Virus record (IMG/VR): IMGVR_UViG_3300045988_059421
Span: 1 to 18,502 of that record
Strand: one strand, 5' to 3'
Origin: a virus
DNA length: 18,502 nt
Shown here: piece by piece, positions 159-18,502 of the stretch
Numbering within the stretch: position 1 is the first letter of the stretch
Layout of the letters: the number at the start of each line of letters is the position of its first letter
The notes under the pieces: generated by a model
Database searches by the model: none
Told to the model about the DNA's origin: nothing
What the model saw: only the letters and a program-made list of their open reading frames with translations
Position numbers and translations under genes: made by a program

Positions 159-191
159 ATAGACAGAAAAAAGGAAAGAGAGGTAAAGCAA

Positions 192-359
192 ATGAAAACA
201 AGAATCCATGAATACCCGTACAGCGAACGCGAAAACTACATAACGGGTAAAGAGTTGTTAGAAATATCCGGTGCTAAAATTTGGGCAGAAACTGAAAGCG
301 AAACAATATATACAATGGATGACGCAATATATATTATAGAATGGAGGAAAGCAAAATGA
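192..359 (+). CDS. Hypothetical small protein (55 aa)
   Basis: Hand-translated because it is below the ORF-track cutoff: MKTRIHEYPYSERENYITGKELLEISGAKIWAETESETIYTMDDAIYIIEWRKAK. GAGAGG lies upstream of the ATG. The stop TGA overlaps the next ATG (ATGA). Confidence 0.5.
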   Translation: MKTRIHEYPYSERENYITGKELLEISGAKIWAETESETIYTMDDAIYIIEWRKAK

Positions 360-517
360 GGGATAACATGAACATTTTTATAAATGCTTATATAGCATTG
401 TACGGGGGCACAAAAGGCAATGCGTGCAAAATATGGCGCGCCACTGATAAAGAATATCATGATTTAATTATTGATTCATTCAAGCAAAACGCGCATGCAG
501 CATTTTACAATGATTAA
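356..517 (+). CDS. Hypothetical small protein (53 aa)
   Basis: Hand-translated: MRDNMNIFINAYIALYGGTKGNACKIWRATDKEYHDLIIDSFKQNAHAAFYND. Strong RBS context GGAGGAAAGCAAAATG. ATGA coupling to the upstream ORF. Confidence 0.5.
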   Translation: MRDNMNIFINAYIALYGGTKGNACKIWRATDKEYHDLIIDSFKQNAHAAFYND

Positions 518-599
518 ACGGCGTTGTGTATGGAACAAATTTTGAAAACATCCTAAAAGCGTATGAAAATAATTAATTGACTAACAGGAGGAAAGCAAA

Positions 600-842
600 A
601 TGAAAAAGCGTGAATATTGCGAGAGCCACGAAACCATAGCATATTATAGCGGACTGAACGGACTGGAAATAAGGGGCATTGAACACGGCATGGAAGATTA
701 TGTATACTGTGTTTCGGGCGCTTGGGGCGGCAGCAAAGGTTTTCACCGTTGTAAAGTTTACTATTCCGTAAACGAAAGCCCATTCTTTAAGGTGCACGGC
801 TATAAAGTGCCACTTGATGAGTGCATTAGAACGGGGGTATAA
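600..842 (+). CDS. Hypothetical protein (80 aa)
   Basis: ORF-track ORF preceded by AGGAGGAAAGCAAAATG, the same initiation cassette as at 341-358. No recognisable motif. Confidence 0.7.
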   Translation: MKKREYCESHETIAYYSGLNGLEIRGIEHGMEDYVYCVSGAWGGSKGFHRCKVYYSVNESPFFKVHGYKVPLDECIRTGV

Positions 843-844
843 AT

Positions 845-1024
845 ATGATTGCAGTAACATACATAGAGCGCAGATTTATAGATCGTTTTACATGTATAGA
901 CACGGAACAAACTATAAAAGCATTATCATCATTTATTCAAGGCGATTTGACCTATTTTAGAATGAACCGTTTTAATTATAAAGTGATTGAAACTGATCTT
1001 ATAAAGTCAATAAAGGAAGTATAA
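845..1024 (+). CDS. Hypothetical small protein (59 aa)
   Basis: Hand-translated: MIAVTYIERRFIDRFTCIDTEQTIKALSSFIQGDLTYFRMNRFNYKVIETDLIKSIKEV. It starts 2 nt after the previous stop, has a weak GGGGT RBS and fills an otherwise empty gap. Confidence 0.45.
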   Translation: MIAVTYIERRFIDRFTCIDTEQTIKALSSFIQGDLTYFRMNRFNYKVIETDLIKSIKEV

Positions 1025-1091
1025 ACAGTCGAAACGGGCACAGACGCCCGTCTGCAACGGTCGGCGGCGTTGCACTGATGATGACACGCCA

Positions 1092-1115
1092 GAAAGGAAA
1101 ATGCAAAATGAAAAC
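1092..1115 (+). repeat. 24-nt initiation cassette, copy 1
   Basis: GAAAGGAAAATGCAAAATGAAAAC is identical to 1559-1582. It spans the RBS and the first three codons (MKT) of an unrelated ORF. Confidence 0.9.
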
Positions 1116-1497
1116 ACAGACAACGAAAAGAGCAATTATGAACGCATATCGCAACGTCATTAGAGTCGGCTACTGCGACTTGCAAGACGCTTTAAAATGG
1201 CGTGAACCAAATTTCTACACTGCGGGTGTGTACGGCTGGAATTCCGACGTTTACGTTATTGATGCCGATACCGTAATCGTAACCGGCTACAGACCGTTCG
1301 GAAACATGCAACTTCCGTGGGAAGTCATTGACGCGCTTAACGAATGCGCGGAAAGCATAACGCGTCATTTTGACTACGACATGGCGAAAATCTCTTTACG
1401 CAACAACCTTGACGAGTTAGCCAGCGGAATAGAATATGATTTAGATAGTTACGTTTTCGCAAGCGCGGACGAAAAGTTTGAAATCAAAAGAAAGTGA
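1108..1497 (+). CDS. Hypothetical protein (129 aa)
   Basis: The ORF-track ORF runs 1078-1497. The start was moved to the ATG at 1108 (MKTQTTKRAIMNAY...), which is preceded by GAAAGGAAAATGCAAAATG. The same 24-mer precedes the ORF at 1575. Contains GYCDLQ...GVYGWNSDVY...TGYRPFG, which I recall loosely from hypothetical proteins of Firmicutes mobile elements. Confidence 0.7.
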   Translation: MKTQTTKRAIMNAYRNVIRVGYCDLQDALKWREPNFYTAGVYGWNSDVYVIDADTVIVTGYRPFGNMQLPWEVIDALNECAESITRHFDYDMAKISLRNNLDELASGIEYDLDSYVFASADEKFEIKRK

Positions 1498-1558
1498 AAA
1501 TGTTCACAAATCGTTCATACGGTCTTCACAAACATAAAGTATACTATAATCATAAAAG

Positions 1559-1582
1559 GAAAGGAAAATGCAAAATGAAAAC
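1559..1582 (+). repeat. 24-nt initiation cassette, copy 2
   Basis: Identical to 1092-1115. Confidence 0.9.
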
Positions 1583-1751
1583 CATCAAAGACTACAACGG
1601 AAACAAGATTGACTTTGAAGCAGCTGTAATGCTTATGGATGATGAAATCAGAGAGCAGCTTCACGCCATGGGAATTGAAGACGAGCAGGAGTTTTACAAC
1701 GCGTATTGCGAAAAGCATTACGAGAAGTATAACGAAGAATTTGAAATCTAA
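1575..1751 (+). CDS. Small acidic hypothetical protein (58 aa)
   Basis: The ORF-track ORF runs 1494-1751. The likely true start is the ATG at 1575 (MKTIKDYNGNKIDFEAAVMLMDDEIREQLH...), behind the shared 24-mer RBS cassette. Very rich in D and E. Confidence 0.65.
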   Translation: MKTIKDYNGNKIDFEAAVMLMDDEIREQLHAMGIEDEQEFYNAYCEKHYEKYNEEFEI

Positions 1752-1844
1752 GCCGAAACGGGCGTAGGCTGTCTACGCGTCATAACTAGACGAGGGAGAC
1801 GAAAATTTTATTATGCAAGTGCTTTATAAAAGGAGTTATCTTGA

Positions 1845-2081
1845 ATGAAAATTATAAAGGAAAAGGCTACAGGTTGTTACAGTGTGTGGAACAGTGAAAA
1901 TCTTTATGCGATAATAGGCAAGCCAGAAGATCTTGCTAAAAGAAAGCTTATTAGCCCAGAAACGGCGATAATCAATGTCGGAAAATGGATAGCTGTTCTT
2001 GCGGAATTAGATAGCGGAATAATCGTGTTTGACAAACTTATGGACGCAAAGAGACATTATTGCAAACTTAAAGAGTGGTAA
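1845..2081 (+). CDS. Hypothetical protein (78 aa)
   Basis: ORF-track ORF with AAGGAG 9 nt upstream of the ATG. Confidence 0.7.
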   Translation: MKIIKEKATGCYSVWNSENLYAIIGKPEDLAKRKLISPETAIINVGKWIAVLAELDSGIIVFDKLMDAKRHYCKLKEW

Positions 2082-2086
2082 AAACC

Positions 2087-2287
2087 ATGAATCCAAACTG
2101 GGCAGACCTATTCAAAGCAAACCTTGTAAAACCCGCATGGGCGGATAACACCAAGGAAACCGAAATACCATTTGTAGTACACGCAATAGACAGTTGTATA
2201 GGCACAAACTGGAGAAAGGACGAAAACAACAATGAACAGTTATTTAGTAACAGTAACCGTAACAGACCCGGACAAAGGCAAGTATAG
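2087..2287 (+). CDS. Hypothetical protein (66 aa)
   Basis: The ORF-track ORF runs 2075-2287. The start at M5 (MNPNWADLFK...) avoids overlap with the previous gene. Its last 56 nt overlap the next ORF. Confidence 0.4.
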   Translation: MNPNWADLFKANLVKPAWADNTKETEIPFVVHAIDSCIGTNWRKDENNNEQLFSNSNRNRPGQRQV

Positions 2288-2417
2288 CATTGAAATACCC
2301 GTACAGGCAAAGACAGCGGCACACGCAAAACGCATAGCGCACAAAGCCGCAAGACAGATGGGCGCTTGCTATATCACAGATTTAACAGCAGAAAGGCGGT
2401 ACGAAAATGAAAATTGA
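2232..2417 (+). CDS. Hypothetical protein (61 aa)
   Basis: ORF-track ORF MNSYLVTVTVTDPDKGKYSIEIPVQAKTAAHAKRIAHKAARQ..., with GGAGAAAGGA upstream. Confidence 0.55.
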   Translation: MNSYLVTVTVTDPDKGKYSIEIPVQAKTAAHAKRIAHKAARQMGACYITDLTAERRYENEN

Positions 2418-2622
2418 GCGAAACCGAGATGTAGAACGCGACATTGCGTATTTGTTAAAGACGTTAGACACCGTGTACGAGACATGTTGTGAGAAATACG
2501 GTGGAAACTGCTATGAATGCCCGTTAGGCTGTTTAGGTGTGCTTGAAACGCAAACATGCTATGAAATTTCCAAACTGAAAAGCCGTTTGGAGTTAGTTTA
2601 TAAGGTGGTGGAAACAATATGA
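2407..2622 (+). CDS. Small Cys-rich protein, paralog 1 (71 aa)
   Basis: Contains VYETCCEKYGGNCYECPLGC...C. The C-x6-C-x2-CPL[GA] pattern is shared with the ORF at 3665. The YET motif is shared with the frame after the TGA at 2948. Confidence 0.65.
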   Translation: MKIERNRDVERDIAYLLKTLDTVYETCCEKYGGNCYECPLGCLGVLETQTCYEISKLKSRLELVYKVVETI

Positions 2623-2753
2623 TTATCGTTTTGTGTTTGAGCATTATAGCAGGAACGCTACTTTGCGGCCTTGCGCAGCTGCTCGAATGGATTGACCGTA
2701 CATACAACGATCACAAGTTGCTTAAAACATTAGGAAGGTGGATGAACTTATGA
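2619..2753 (+). CDS. Small single-pass membrane protein (44 aa)
   Basis: Hand-translated: MIIVLCLSIIAGTLLCGLAQLLEWIDRTYNDHKLLKTLGRWMNL. It has a hydrophobic N-terminal stretch of about 20 aa. ATGA overlaps occur at both ends. GGTGG lies upstream. Confidence 0.45.
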   Translation: MIIVLCLSIIAGTLLCGLAQLLEWIDRTYNDHKLLKTLGRWMNL

Positions 2754-2950
2754 GCCAAAACAAGCAAAAGGAACACGCTAATCATTATTTCGACCCGCGT
2801 GTTTTGGAGAATTATTGTCGGAATGACGTATTGCTTACGTTTGAGCTTGCAGGTCGTCAAGCGGGTAAACTCATAGCTAACGGAGAATTAGAGATGAAAC
2901 AAAATGAACTACAAGCAATGCTGCATGACGCAAACCAACTAATAAAGTGA
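2750..2950 (+). CDS. Hypothetical protein (66 aa) ending at an in-frame TGA; N-terminal part of Cys-rich paralog 2
   Basis: The ORF-track ORF runs 2738-2950. The ATG at 2750 is coupled (ATGA) to the previous stop and follows AGGAAGGTGG. The ATG at 2738 is an alternative start. The frame stays open for 50 more codons after the TGA. Confidence 0.6.
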   Translation: MSQNKQKEHANHYFDPRVLENYCRNDVLLTFELAGRQAGKLIANGELEMKQNELQAMLHDANQLIK

Positions 2951-3103
2951 ATATATGAAACGCAGGAATGTCAGAAGTCTGGGTGTGATGCACGGTGTCG
3001 TTATAACGCTATTTGTGAAGCGGCACATATGACATACAAACTAATAAAGCGTCAAGTTGACCTGTACAACATAAAAAGGAGCGTTAAATATGATAACAAT
3101 TAG
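2951..3103 (+). other. Open in-frame extension after TGA 2948-2950, encoding the Cys-rich module of paralog 2
   Basis: Hand-translated in the frame of the upstream ORF: IYETQECQKSGCDARCRYNAICEAAHMTYKLIKRQVDLYNIKRSVKYDNN*. No ATG, GTG or TTG lies upstream of the Cys motif. It aligns with IFDSPECKQHTDCTTDCKAYAIC of the ORF at 3090. Confidence 0.45.
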
Positions 3104-3311
3104 CACCCGATGCTATACCACTGAACAACTGAAATACCTTTTAGAGGGTTTGTCTTACTCGGCAGATAGAATATTTGACAGCCCAGAATGTAAACAACAT
3201 ACAGATTGCACGACGGACTGTAAAGCCTACGCAATATGTCATGACTTAGATAGTACAAGAGAATATATCTGGAAAAAGATAAAGGAGCGTGAAGCACTTG
3301 AATTACATTGA
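3090..3311 (+). CDS. Small Cys-rich protein, paralog 3 (73 aa)
   Basis: AAGGAG lies 8 nt upstream of the ATG. Contains ECKQHTDCTTDCKAYAIC (C-x5-C-x3-C-x5-C). Confidence 0.7.
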   Translation: MITISTRCYTTEQLKYLLEGLSYSADRIFDSPECKQHTDCTTDCKAYAICHDLDSTREYIWKKIKEREALELH

Positions 3312-3681
3312 GATACGCAAGAAAGTAAATGAAACCACCCCGCGCGGTGCATACAGAAGCGCCGTAAAGCTATACGCAATAGACATTTTAAACCGATTAG
3401 GCGACGCAGAAGCGCCGGACACGTTATCCGAGCTACATACCGAACTGCTCGACGGTTGTCTAAACTGGGTTGAATATAGCTATTGCGGCAAGGCGCTTGC
3501 AGACAGTTACAGCATAGCAGGACGCACTTGCAGCCCTACTACCTTAAAGCGTTTGCACGCCGGTGCAAAGCAGCCCGTAGGCTTTGGCACGTGGCTTGAT
3601 TATCAAGCAAGCGCGTTAAAACAAGCCGAAAAGCTTATCATACAAAAATATTGCGAGGTTAAAAATGAACATAGAGGATGA
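3289..3681 (+). CDS. Hypothetical protein (about 127-130 aa)
   Basis: The ORF track starts it at GTG 3289, which lies only 1 nt after AGGAG (3283-3287). TTG 3298 has better spacing. The motifs AYRSAVKLYAIDILN...LLDGCLNWVEYSYCG recall, from memory only, hypothetical proteins of Firmicutes conjugative elements. Confidence 0.7.
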   Translation: MKHLNYIEIRKKVNETTPRGAYRSAVKLYAIDILNRLGDAEAPDTLSELHTELLDGCLNWVEYSYCGKALADSYSIAGRTCSPTTLKRLHAGAKQPVGFGTWLDYQASALKQAEKLIIQKYCEVKNEHRG

Positions 3682-3880
3682 AGAACACAAAATTACATTT
3701 ACGTTTAAAAACGCAGAAGAACATAAGCGTTTTGTACAAGTTTTAAAACAAACAAGAGACTCTATTTGTGGCAGAAGCATTCTGCTTTGTAATGCTTGCC
3801 CCTTAGCAAAAATACATACAAAATCAGGTTCGGATTTGTGCGATGCTATAGACAAAATGTTTATATATTTGTCTATATAA
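3665..3880 (+). CDS. Small Cys-rich protein, paralog 4 (71 aa)
   Basis: GAGGT lies 5 nt upstream of the ATG. Contains CGRSILLCNACPLA...CDAIDKM, matching the C-x6-C-x2-CPL[GA]...C-x-x-I-x-K pattern of the ORF at 2407. Confidence 0.65.
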   Translation: MNIEDEEHKITFTFKNAEEHKRFVQVLKQTRDSICGRSILLCNACPLAKIHTKSGSDLCDAIDKMFIYLSI

Positions 3881-3888
3881 TAAACAAA

Positions 3889-3917
3889 GGCTCGAATACC
3901 ATTACGGTACTCGAGCC
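3889..3917. terminator. Bidirectional stem-loop terminator between the convergent left arm and late operon
   Basis: GGCTCGAATACC (3889-3900) pairs with GGTACTCGAGCC (3906-3917), giving a 12-bp stem with one mismatch and a 5-nt loop. T-rich flanks occur on both strands. It sits between the stop codons at 3880 (+) and 3936 (-). Confidence 0.6.
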
Positions 3918-18236: not shown

Positions 18237-18260
18237 AAAAATGACGGTTAGTCATTTTGT
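18237..18260. repeat. Subterminal palindromic repeat R1
   Basis: AAAATGAC-GGTTA-GTCATTTTGT. The 8-nt arms AAAATGAC and GTCATTTT are exact reverse complements around a 5-nt core. Confidence 0.85.
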
Positions 18261-18391
18261 ATGCATGGCATGTCAATCCTTGGTCGTGCGTTCGCCTGAT
18301 TCCGTCGACAGAGAGCACGTGTTCCGGCGGGGTTACGTATTGCACCGTGTCCCGTCCGCAGAGCGGAGCAGAGCGACGCGGACGGCGGGTG
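18261..18391. other. GC-rich structured non-coding island between repeats R1 and R2
   Basis: By my count 61 of the 90 bases in 18301-18390 are G or C, in a genome that is otherwise AT-leaning. It contains an 8-bp GC stem: CCGTCCGC (18352-18359) pairs with GCGGACGG (18378-18385). It also contains degenerate direct units beginning CCGTC..CAGAG at 18302 and 18352. Confidence 0.6.
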
Positions 18392-18414
18392 AAAACTGAC
18401 TGTTAGTCATTTTG
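18392..18414. repeat. Subterminal palindromic repeat R2
   Basis: AAAACTGAC-TGTTA-GTCATTTTG. It differs from R3 only at the first core base. The left arm carries one extra C relative to R1. Confidence 0.85.
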
Positions 18415-18427
18415 TGCGCGACATGGT

Positions 18428-18450
18428 AAAACTGACCGTTAGTCATTTTG
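18428..18450. repeat. Subterminal palindromic repeat R3
   Basis: AAAACTGAC-CGTTA-GTCATTTTG. It lies 36 bp (start to start) from R2 and ends 17 bp before the right ITR. Confidence 0.85.
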
Positions 18451-18467
18451 CGCTCGCGCTGATGCCA

Positions 18468-18502
18468 GTTAGTTGTGACTTACGCTCGTTCTTACCACTG
18501 CT
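18468..18502. repeat. Right inverted terminal repeat (35 bp, perfect)
   Basis: Exact reverse complement of 1-35. Confidence 0.95.

Follow-up and report, generated by a model that had tools for sequence, protein, structure and literature searches.

Left-end operon of the phage genome

Four Cys-rich frames, A to D, lie on the + strand in the left-end operon of the window (Table 1), by which we mean the whole 18,502-nt (18.5-kb) stretch of DNA that was analysed. This operon converges on the late operon and is closed by a strong terminator; the hairpin listed in Table 1 is probably a bidirectional terminator that ends it. The operon is called putatively early from its position and orientation only, by analogy with phi29. 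The sequence-only reading of this DNA had placed four Cys-rich frames here, and all four were confirmed, A, C and D being conserved genes with near-invariant Cys. However, the interpretation that was put on them is only partly borne out.

Table 1. Mini-protein genes and the terminator at the left end of the window
Feature	Position	Strand	Description
Gene A	2407..2622	+	71-aa Cys4 protein, predicted hairpin; A/D/E 'CxxCPL' family
Gene B, N-terminal 66 codons	2750..2950	+	Stops at premature TGA (2948-2950)
Gene B, C-terminal Cys4 module	2951..3103	+	C-x4-C-x3-C-x5-C; separated off by the nonsense codon
Gene C	3090..3311	+	73-aa Cys4 protein, predicted hairpin; tandem B paralogue
Gene D	3665..3880	+	71-aa Cys4 protein; distant A paralogue; final gene of the putative early + strand operon
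Hairpin, 13-bp stem	3889..3917	.	Terminator scan; between the stop codons of D and of the converging tail-fibre gene

The ends of the window are perfect 35-nt ITRs, and the genome encodes pol B, a dsDNA-binding protein and an SSB-like protein; it is a complete protein-primed podophage of the phi29-like kind and comes from the human gut. Its closest cultured relatives are Clostridium phages CS229P1-3 (49% identity in the polymerase and 57% in the MCP), whose host is Clostridium symbiosum. From this kinship and from the sample, a gut metagenome, we infer that the hosts are anaerobic gut Clostridia. Bacterial and archaeal genomes scanned with ORF 3289 and the C family gave no match, which left no direct way to assign a host. 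Among GenBank phages, no match was found by megablast with the whole genome or by tblastn with A and C.

Two pairs of paralogues

The RBS GAAAGG lies upstream of gene A, and the tetrad C28-x6-C35-x2-C38-x12-C51 of its product is intact in 64 of 65 full-length homologues (n=67 homologues, 60–87% identity, length 71 aa), among which two further cysteines of the window protein, C27 and C42, are variable. The tetrad of D, C35-x6-C42-x2-C45-x13-C59, is intact in 87 of 94 full-length homologues (n=100, many of them 73–97% identical). Compared by hhalign, A and D match with a probability of 95% and an E-value of 2.7e-8. Such scores were set against Cys-fixed decoys, in which the Cys columns were kept and the remaining columns were shuffled (100 for each of the pairs A-D and B-C). 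The A-D score is 42.8, compared with 11.7±2.8 for its decoys (maximum 20.4), and none of the 100 scored as high. Subtype E, which is found in relatives, matches the A+D profile with an E-value of 3.8e-5. Members of the A/D/E family are thus joined by homology beyond Cys spacing, and the tetrad that defines the family, C-x(5-7)-C-x2-C-x(12-13)-C, is the one kept by the A and D homologues. In A and D, P-L stands directly after C-x6-C-x2-C, and E carries C-x2-C-P-L-x3-C. The slot of gene D is filled in relatives by a D, E or F subtype, or is empty.

Gene C has a strong RBS (AAAGGAG), and its tetrad C34-x5-C40-x3-C44-x5-C50 is intact in 120 of the 120 matches listed, of 506. B and C are aligned by hhalign along 52 columns in which their Cys coincide (probability 89%, E 2.3e-6); the score is 34.6, compared with 12.4±3.2 for the decoys (maximum 23.4; 0 of 100 as high). 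The B/C family is defined by this profile homology together with the tetrad C-x(3-5)-C-x(2-4)-C-x5-C, and the terminal Cys spacing is C-x2-C-x5-C in B, E and F and C-x3-C-x5-C in C. By the E-values and the Cys-fixed decoys, both motif pairs that were first noticed by eye, A/D and B/C, are real homologies.

A nonsense mutation in gene B

Gene B as a whole spans 2750-3103 and codes for ~117 aa. The frame after the TGA is its C-terminal Cys module, which lacks its own start codon and RBS and ends at a TAG (3101-3103) overlapping the start of gene C. Two relatives (L020 and L057) contain the unbroken ~117-aa ORF with CGA (Arg) at this codon, and the TGA is therefore a nonsense mutation, not recoding. 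Besides, the genes for the polymerase and the terminal protein, with others in the window, end at TGA as their ordinary stop. A readthrough product had been suggested, but the stop is not conserved in relatives and TGA is not reassigned in this genome. Selenocysteine was rejected as well, because the relatives carry Arg and not Cys at the codon.

Given the nonsense mutation, the Cys module of the window B is probably not made. No record matched the truncated B in an exact-protein look-up, and the only other assembly with the TGA allele is the same genome (100% identical). The window module is 93% identical to the module of L020, and none of the four Cys varies in the B alignment. Relatives also contain stand-alone B-type ORFs of 60–72 aa.

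Copy number, selection and origin

A survey of copy number in related genomes, proposed in the sequence-only reading, did find variation: 1 to 6 intact copies are present in each genome, along with further subtypes (E and F) and decayed copies, B among them, and many sister genomes are without given mini-proteins. Over the whole gene, dN/dS comes to 0.36 in A and 0.23 in C, compared with 0.04–0.21 for flanking genes. The dN of A and C is 5–20 times that of the flanking genes, although dN/dS is still below 1. A and C are under purifying selection, weaker than that on the flanks, and gene-wide positive selection is not seen, contrary to the diversifying selection that had been proposed. Since dS lies far above the flanks, it suggests that old alleles have been exchanged, and not that positive selection acts locally. 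The families are already separate across the whole clade, which indicates that the duplications are old and not particular to the window genome.

Between the pairs, hhalign of A/D against B/C gave E-values of 0.033 and 0.077 with a probability of at most 1.5%, i.e. no detectable homology, and the cross-pair score of 16, judged against the decoy ranges of the A-D and B-C controls, lies within what Cys-only decoys reach. The link between A and B that was drawn from the 'YET' motif finds no support in this result. By sequence comparison, the four frames are not four paralogs from a fourfold duplication, but two families of two with a common design only, and subtype F, compared with both, could be assigned to neither A/D nor B/C. 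A single family, raised by fourfold duplication under diversifying selection and with a TGA copy that is read through, would agree with the helix / C4 loop / helix design common to all four, with the adjacent positions of B and C, and with the chain of weak similarities by which subtypes E and F link the families. Nevertheless, we consider it quite unlikely in view of the cross-pair scores, the age of the duplications, the dN/dS values below 1, and the fact that TGA is a normal stop here and is CGA in the intact relatives. A distant common origin of A/D and B/C may be compatible with their shared predicted topology.

Restriction to one phage lineage

In Pfam, no family was reached at the gathering threshold by the window proteins or 54 family members, zf-dskA_traR included; one B/C member has a subthreshold match to Cas4. 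The sole recurrent match in PHROGs is the unannotated phrog_9264, found by 14 of 37 A/D members (best E 8.2e-5), and its E-value with a window protein is 0.0019, below the safe threshold. The phrog_9264 family has no annotated function and is without a tblastn match in GenBank phages. Profile searches of the PDB gave noise only (IL-2, TGF-beta receptor ectodomain, MutY), in which the sole match that does not look random is that of the A/D profile to residues 178-206 of E. coli MutY (E 0.74). Foldseek, run on the PDB with the models of A and C and on BFVD with that of C, retrieved only generic helical hairpins (E>0.4), the best being an uncharacterised 64-aa protein of 'Myoviridae sp.' (E 0.42, TM 0.73).

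Searched exhaustively with HMMER, 1.84e9 representative proteins yielded only 15 matches of 47–73 aa, which are of the same kind and all in the phage clade, and in the cultured relatives CS229P1-3 the mini-proteins are absent altogether. The A/D and B/C families are real, unannotated and limited to one phage lineage. It had been claimed that no equivalent exists, and this holds for annotated families and for cultured phi29-like phages; profile searches, named beforehand as a check that could refute the claim, placed the proteins in no unrelated known family.

Predicted fold and candidate metal site

The AF2 models of A (pLDDT 83, helices 7-27 and 50-70) and C (pLDDT 88, helices 11-29 and 47-72, Cys loop 30-46) are alpha-hairpins that carry the four Cys at their apex, as judged by secondary structure, in agreement with the helix / Cys cluster / helix layout of small Cys4 proteins described at first sight. 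Short ORFs and motifs are easily over-read, and the Cys patterns might be chance in spurious or non-coding ORFs. The probability of this is practically negligible, considering that homologues of conserved length and with an invariant Cys tetrad number in the hundreds (45–90% identity), that dN/dS is well below 1, that the RBSs are correctly spaced and that the AF2 models are confident; for A, C and D this reading is refuted, and the module of the window B is expected to be unexpressed. A secreted or disulfide-rich peptide is also unlikely, since by eye A, C and D have no signal peptide or TM segment and the operon is probably early.

The four Cys would hold one structural metal ion, most likely Zn2+. 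Alternatively, the Cys4 site could bind [4Fe-4S] (or [2Fe-2S]) instead of zinc, which would make these proteins minimal Fe-S proteins of a strict-anaerobe phage, and we regard this as possible but doubtful. The cluster motif of MutY/EndoIII is Cys-X6-Cys-X2-Cys-X5-Cys (PMC12631127). A and D resemble it in how the first three ligands are spaced, C-x6-C-x2-C, here followed by P-L, and the C-x2-C-P-L-x3-C of subtype E is similar to the Fe-S loop of the same enzymes. The match of the A/D profile falls on MutY residues 178-206, which we take to span its cluster-ligand cysteines. The Cys endings of B, E and F and of C, the B/C member with a subthreshold Cas4 match, and the presumed hosts, anaerobic gut Clostridia, are also in favour of Fe-S. 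However, every match is non-significant and motif-driven; the fourth Cys of A/D is 12–13 residues off, not 5, so that the spacing agrees in part; and many members have F, M, S or Y in place of Pro. In addition, C4 sites of small proteins are more often zinc. EndoIII/MutY differ further in their HhH-GPD glycosylase domain, which is absent from the 70-aa stand-alone hairpins.

Comparison with known small Cys4 proteins

WhiB-like (Wbl) proteins of Actinobacteria and actinophages are small and helical, with four Cys ending in C-x2-C-x5-C; some lineages of them are encoded by phages, and they act by binding a host protein, the sigma factor. This ending is common to subtypes B, E and F. However, in Wbl proteins the first Cys is 14–27 residues upstream, and they have a four-helix bundle, a G[V/I]WGG turn and a basic tail. 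They are limited to Actinobacteria, and the phage mini-proteins are without a Pfam match. It is unlikely, though conceivable, that the mini-proteins are the smallest stand-alone phage [4Fe-4S] hairpins so far seen (~70 aa), with an EndoIII/MutY-like C-x6-C-x2-C-P-L loop, and would serve a phi29-like phage of strictly anaerobic gut Clostridia in several interchangeable copies as redox- or oxygen-sensitive binders of host factors, a Firmicutes-phage counterpart of the actinophage WhiB-like proteins.

Another comparison is with the C4 zinc fingers of the TraR/DksA type (F-plasmid TraR, phage lambda Orf73; ~70 aa, PF01258), which belong to mobile elements, consist of helices and one four-Cys metal site, and bind host RNA polymerase. 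The likeness lies in the size of ~70 aa, the helices and the four Cys. TraR/DksA proteins are distinguished by C-x2-C-x17-C-x2-C, with two knuckles in a globular finger, whereas the phage mini-proteins have a single CxxC or CxxxC and two lone Cys at the apex of the hairpin. The absence of a Pfam match and the inferred host phylum set them apart as well.

Metal-stabilised small DNA binders are common in general, and the mini-proteins might be DNA-binding regulators of the early/late switch, analogous to p4 of phi29 and not directed at the host. The putatively early operon adjoins the convergent late operon, the C-terminal helix of the B module is basic, and full-length B has a pI of 8.6. Nonetheless, A, C and D range from acidic to neutral; the mildly acidic pI of A (5.1) and C (5.5) is a weak argument against DNA binding, from which nothing positive follows. 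No HTH or other DNA-binding family was matched in Pfam, and CS229P1-3 are without these proteins. Genes that occur in 1 to 6 copies, are missing from many sisters and become pseudogenes are unlike a core regulator, and on balance we find this role very improbable.

Proposed role and implications

The reading that we favour, with a probability of about 0.5, is that these proteins are lineage-specific metal-capped hairpins, dispensable early accessory factors that are swapped as cassettes. The left-end + strand operon, putatively early, carries mini-proteins of ~60–80 aa from the A/D(+E) and B/C families. Each would form an antiparallel alpha-helical hairpin, with Cys on the end of helix 1, in the loop and at the start of helix 2, and a single metal ion, likely Zn2+ (or [4Fe-4S]), would lock it through the four Cys. 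The mini-proteins may bind host or phage macromolecules and so act in host takeover or counter-defence, and the phages would gain, lose, swap and inactivate their genes as cassettes. In the window genome, A, C and D are intact and B has been disabled by a CGA-to-TGA change.

Phages keep host-takeover and anti-defence tools among their small early ORFans, and to our knowledge almost none of those in gut-Clostridia phages has been characterised. If the mini-proteins are ordinary zinc-stabilised binders, the result is a useful annotation and no surprise; if Fe-S is true, they would join the viral 'zinc' proteins that have lately been re-assigned to Fe-S. In either case, two compact, readily synthesised protein families are defined, with the hypothesis of a metal-locked alpha-hairpin, and their hundreds of natural variants, natural knock-outs and copy-number variation make them a good system for phage targets in gut anaerobes.

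Two families of Cys-rich mini-proteins

Judged from sequence, the four Cys-rich genes A, B, C and D are two families of two (A/D and B/C) with one common design. In hhalign comparison, A matches D with a probability of 95% (E = 2.7e-8), and B matches C with a probability of 89% (E = 2.3e-6) over 52 columns, with the four Cys all in register. Because conserved cysteines inflate hhalign scores, we also used decoys in which the Cys columns were fixed and the remaining columns shuffled. The score is 42.8 for A versus D (decoys 11.7±2.8, maximum 20.4) and 34.6 for B versus C (decoys 12.4±3.2, maximum 23.4), so the similarity within each pair exceeds Cys spacing. The sequence-only reading described the anatomy of the four frames accurately, and the motif pairs it noticed (2407/3665 and 3090/2951) are real. 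Across the pairs, no homology was detected by hhalign (A/D versus B/C; E = 0.033 and 0.077); with a score of 16, the comparison is at decoy level. The “YET” motif proposed to link A with B is thus no evidence of homology, and the proposed fourfold duplication is not supported. Subtype E of related genomes (C-x-C-x8-C-x2-C-P-L-x3-C) is homologous to A/D (E = 3.8e-5), while subtype F, found at the D position, was placed in neither family.

Databases contain 67 homologues of A (60–87% identity, nearly all 70–71 aa) and 100 of D, and the B/C profile retrieves 506 proteins; the 120 among the matches listed are all of C type. The tetrad of A (C-x6-C-x2-C-x12-C) is kept in 64 of 65 full-length homologues, that of D (C-x6/7-C-x2-C-x13-C) in 87 of 94, and that of C (C-x5-C-x3-C-x5-C) in all 120 homologues among the matches listed. 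Outside the four essentially invariant Cys the sequence varies in every family, and additional Cys in the window copies (C27 and C42 of A, C8 of C) are not conserved.

Genomic setting

The window is bounded by perfect 35-nt inverted terminal repeats (1–35 and 18468–18502), which indicate a complete, linear, protein-primed genome. It codes for a type-B DNA polymerase, a packaging ATPase, a capsid protein and tail genes; an ORF without family match occupies the terminal-protein position directly upstream of the polymerase gene, and the right end gives weak matches to phi29-type dsDNA-binding protein and SSB. The closest cultured phages are Clostridium phages CS229P1-3 (polymerase 49%, capsid protein 57% identical), whose host is Clostridium_Q symbiosum, and assembly ERR260173, a human gut metagenome, contains the same genome. 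From its position, we infer that the operon holding the Cys4 genes may be equivalent to the phi29 right early operon; the hairpin at its end is probably a bidirectional terminator.

Cys4 genes and their operon in the window
Feature	Coordinates	Strand	Description
Gene A	2407–2622	+	Conserved ORF with good ribosome-binding site
Gene C	3090–3311	+	Conserved ORF with good ribosome-binding site
Gene D	3665–3880	+	Conserved ORF with good ribosome-binding site
Operon holding Cys4 genes	~190–3880	+	Converges on − strand late genes
GC-rich hairpin, 13-bp stem	3889–3917		Between + strand operon and converging tail-fibre gene; ends operon

Two kinds of repeats were also observed. Upstream of the − strand early operon, the right end is non-coding and contains three copies (18237–18265, 18392–18420 and 18428–18456) of a 29-nt repeat built around a palindromic core (AAAACTGACnGTTAGTCATTTTG); these copies are possible binding sites for operator or replication-organiser function. 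ORFs 1078–1497 and 1494–1751 receive an identical RBS and start region from a direct repeat of 24 nt without mismatch (GAAAGGAAAATGCAAAATGAAAAC; 1092–1115 and 1559–1582). Since the leader KGKCKMKT is common to both ORFs as listed, translation probably begins at the ATGs at 1108 and 1575. The 139-aa gene is present twice in the relative L001.

A nonsense mutation in gene B

The sequence-only reading spoke of a readthrough product across a TGA, which lies at 2948–2950. The frame after this TGA has neither a start codon nor an RBS of its own. An IMG/VR locus (L020) and a metagenome contig (L057) contain an uninterrupted gene of ~117 aa matching 2750–3103, with CGA (Arg) at this position, and TGA is the ordinary stop of the polymerase, terminal protein and other window genes. 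Therefore B carries a C-to-T nonsense mutation, an allele known from this one genome alone, and recoding or programmed readthrough is not supported. Decay of B also occurs in L002 and L003, through a frameshift and a stop within the Cys motif; in both (L003 2196–2591) the 5' part of C is missing, which looks like a deletion between the paralogues B and C.

The stop of C (3309–3311) is a second TGA that matches CGA in 22 relatives, in which C is longer by 7 residues (RDTQESK). This TGA is common to the window, L004 and L032, and the C/T change is silent in the frame of ORF 3289–3681, which overlaps here.

Copy number and selection

Copy number does vary in the related genomes, as the sequence-only reading had proposed to survey: 1 to 6 intact Cys4 ORFs per genome (median 3; ~30 genomes). 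B-type genes are single, doubled (L006, L029) or located elsewhere (L001, 771–944), and the position following the 130-aa conserved gene is filled by D, E, F or two of these, or is empty.

Pairwise dN is 0.45 for A and 0.33 for C, which is 5–20 times that of flanking genes (0.02–0.07). The dS of both is far above the flanks and saturated, so the dN/dS of 0.36 (A) and 0.23 (C) are rough. The pattern does not fit gene-wide positive selection, and the diversifying selection suggested earlier is not borne out; it agrees with purifying selection acting on old alleles that are exchangeable within a recombination hotspot.

ORF 3289–3681 (130 aa, no family match), with hypervariable Cys genes on either side, is clearly strongly constrained: its dN/dS is 0.04, and it is 84–98% identical across related IMG/VR genomes (91% or more in all except one). 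The conserved ORF 2619–2753 (44 aa), whose start overlaps the stop of A (ATGA), has an N-terminal hydrophobic stretch, a putative membrane helix, and is kept even in relatives without A.

Predicted structure, metal binding and role

Structures were predicted by AlphaFold2 with family alignments, and the geometry of the Cys site was deduced, not taken from coordinates. The models are confident and contain helices 7–27 and 50–70 with short turns in between for A (pLDDT 83), and helices 11–29 and 47–72 with a loop at 30–46 for C (pLDDT 88). In both, one Cys comes directly behind helix 1, the loop holds the next two, and helix 2 begins with the last; A and C are thus predicted to be alpha-hairpins with a C4 apex. 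The four thiols would hold one metal, locking a minimal alpha-hairpin whose exposed helices would serve as binding surface.

Zinc would be the default metal, and an iron-sulfur cluster is a real alternative. The MutY/EndoIII motif is Cys-X6-Cys-X2-Cys-X5-Cys (PMC12631127); A and D share its C-x6-C-x2-C, subtype E contains C-x2-C-P-L-x3-C, and B, E and F end in C-x2-C-x5-C. The sole suggestive PDB match of the A/D profile is to MutY residues 178–206 (E = 0.74, non-significant), and the likely hosts are strict anaerobes. Motif, match and hosts do not discriminate between the metals.

No Pfam family reached threshold for the window proteins or 54 family members, and PDB profile searches and Foldseek gave noise or generic helical hairpins only. 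The only PHROGs match is phrog_9264, a family of unknown function, which the A/D group hits weakly but recurrently (14 of 37 members, best E = 8.2e-5). An exhaustive HMMER search of 1.84 billion representative proteins with the A+D profile found 15, all of the same type and 47–73 aa. These Cys4 proteins were not found in GenBank phages, including the CS229P phages, or in representative bacterial and archaeal genomes, and every IMG/VR relative lies on a ~15–18 kb contig of the same clade.

A role as core DNA-binding regulators is argued against by the mildly acidic pI of A and C and by the dispensability of the Cys4 proteins, which would instead be dispensable early accessory factors in host takeover or counter-defence. 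The two mini-protein families are genuine, previously unannotated and lineage-restricted; their design is unusual but simple, and they belong to a familiar kind, the small Cys4 accessory proteins of phages.
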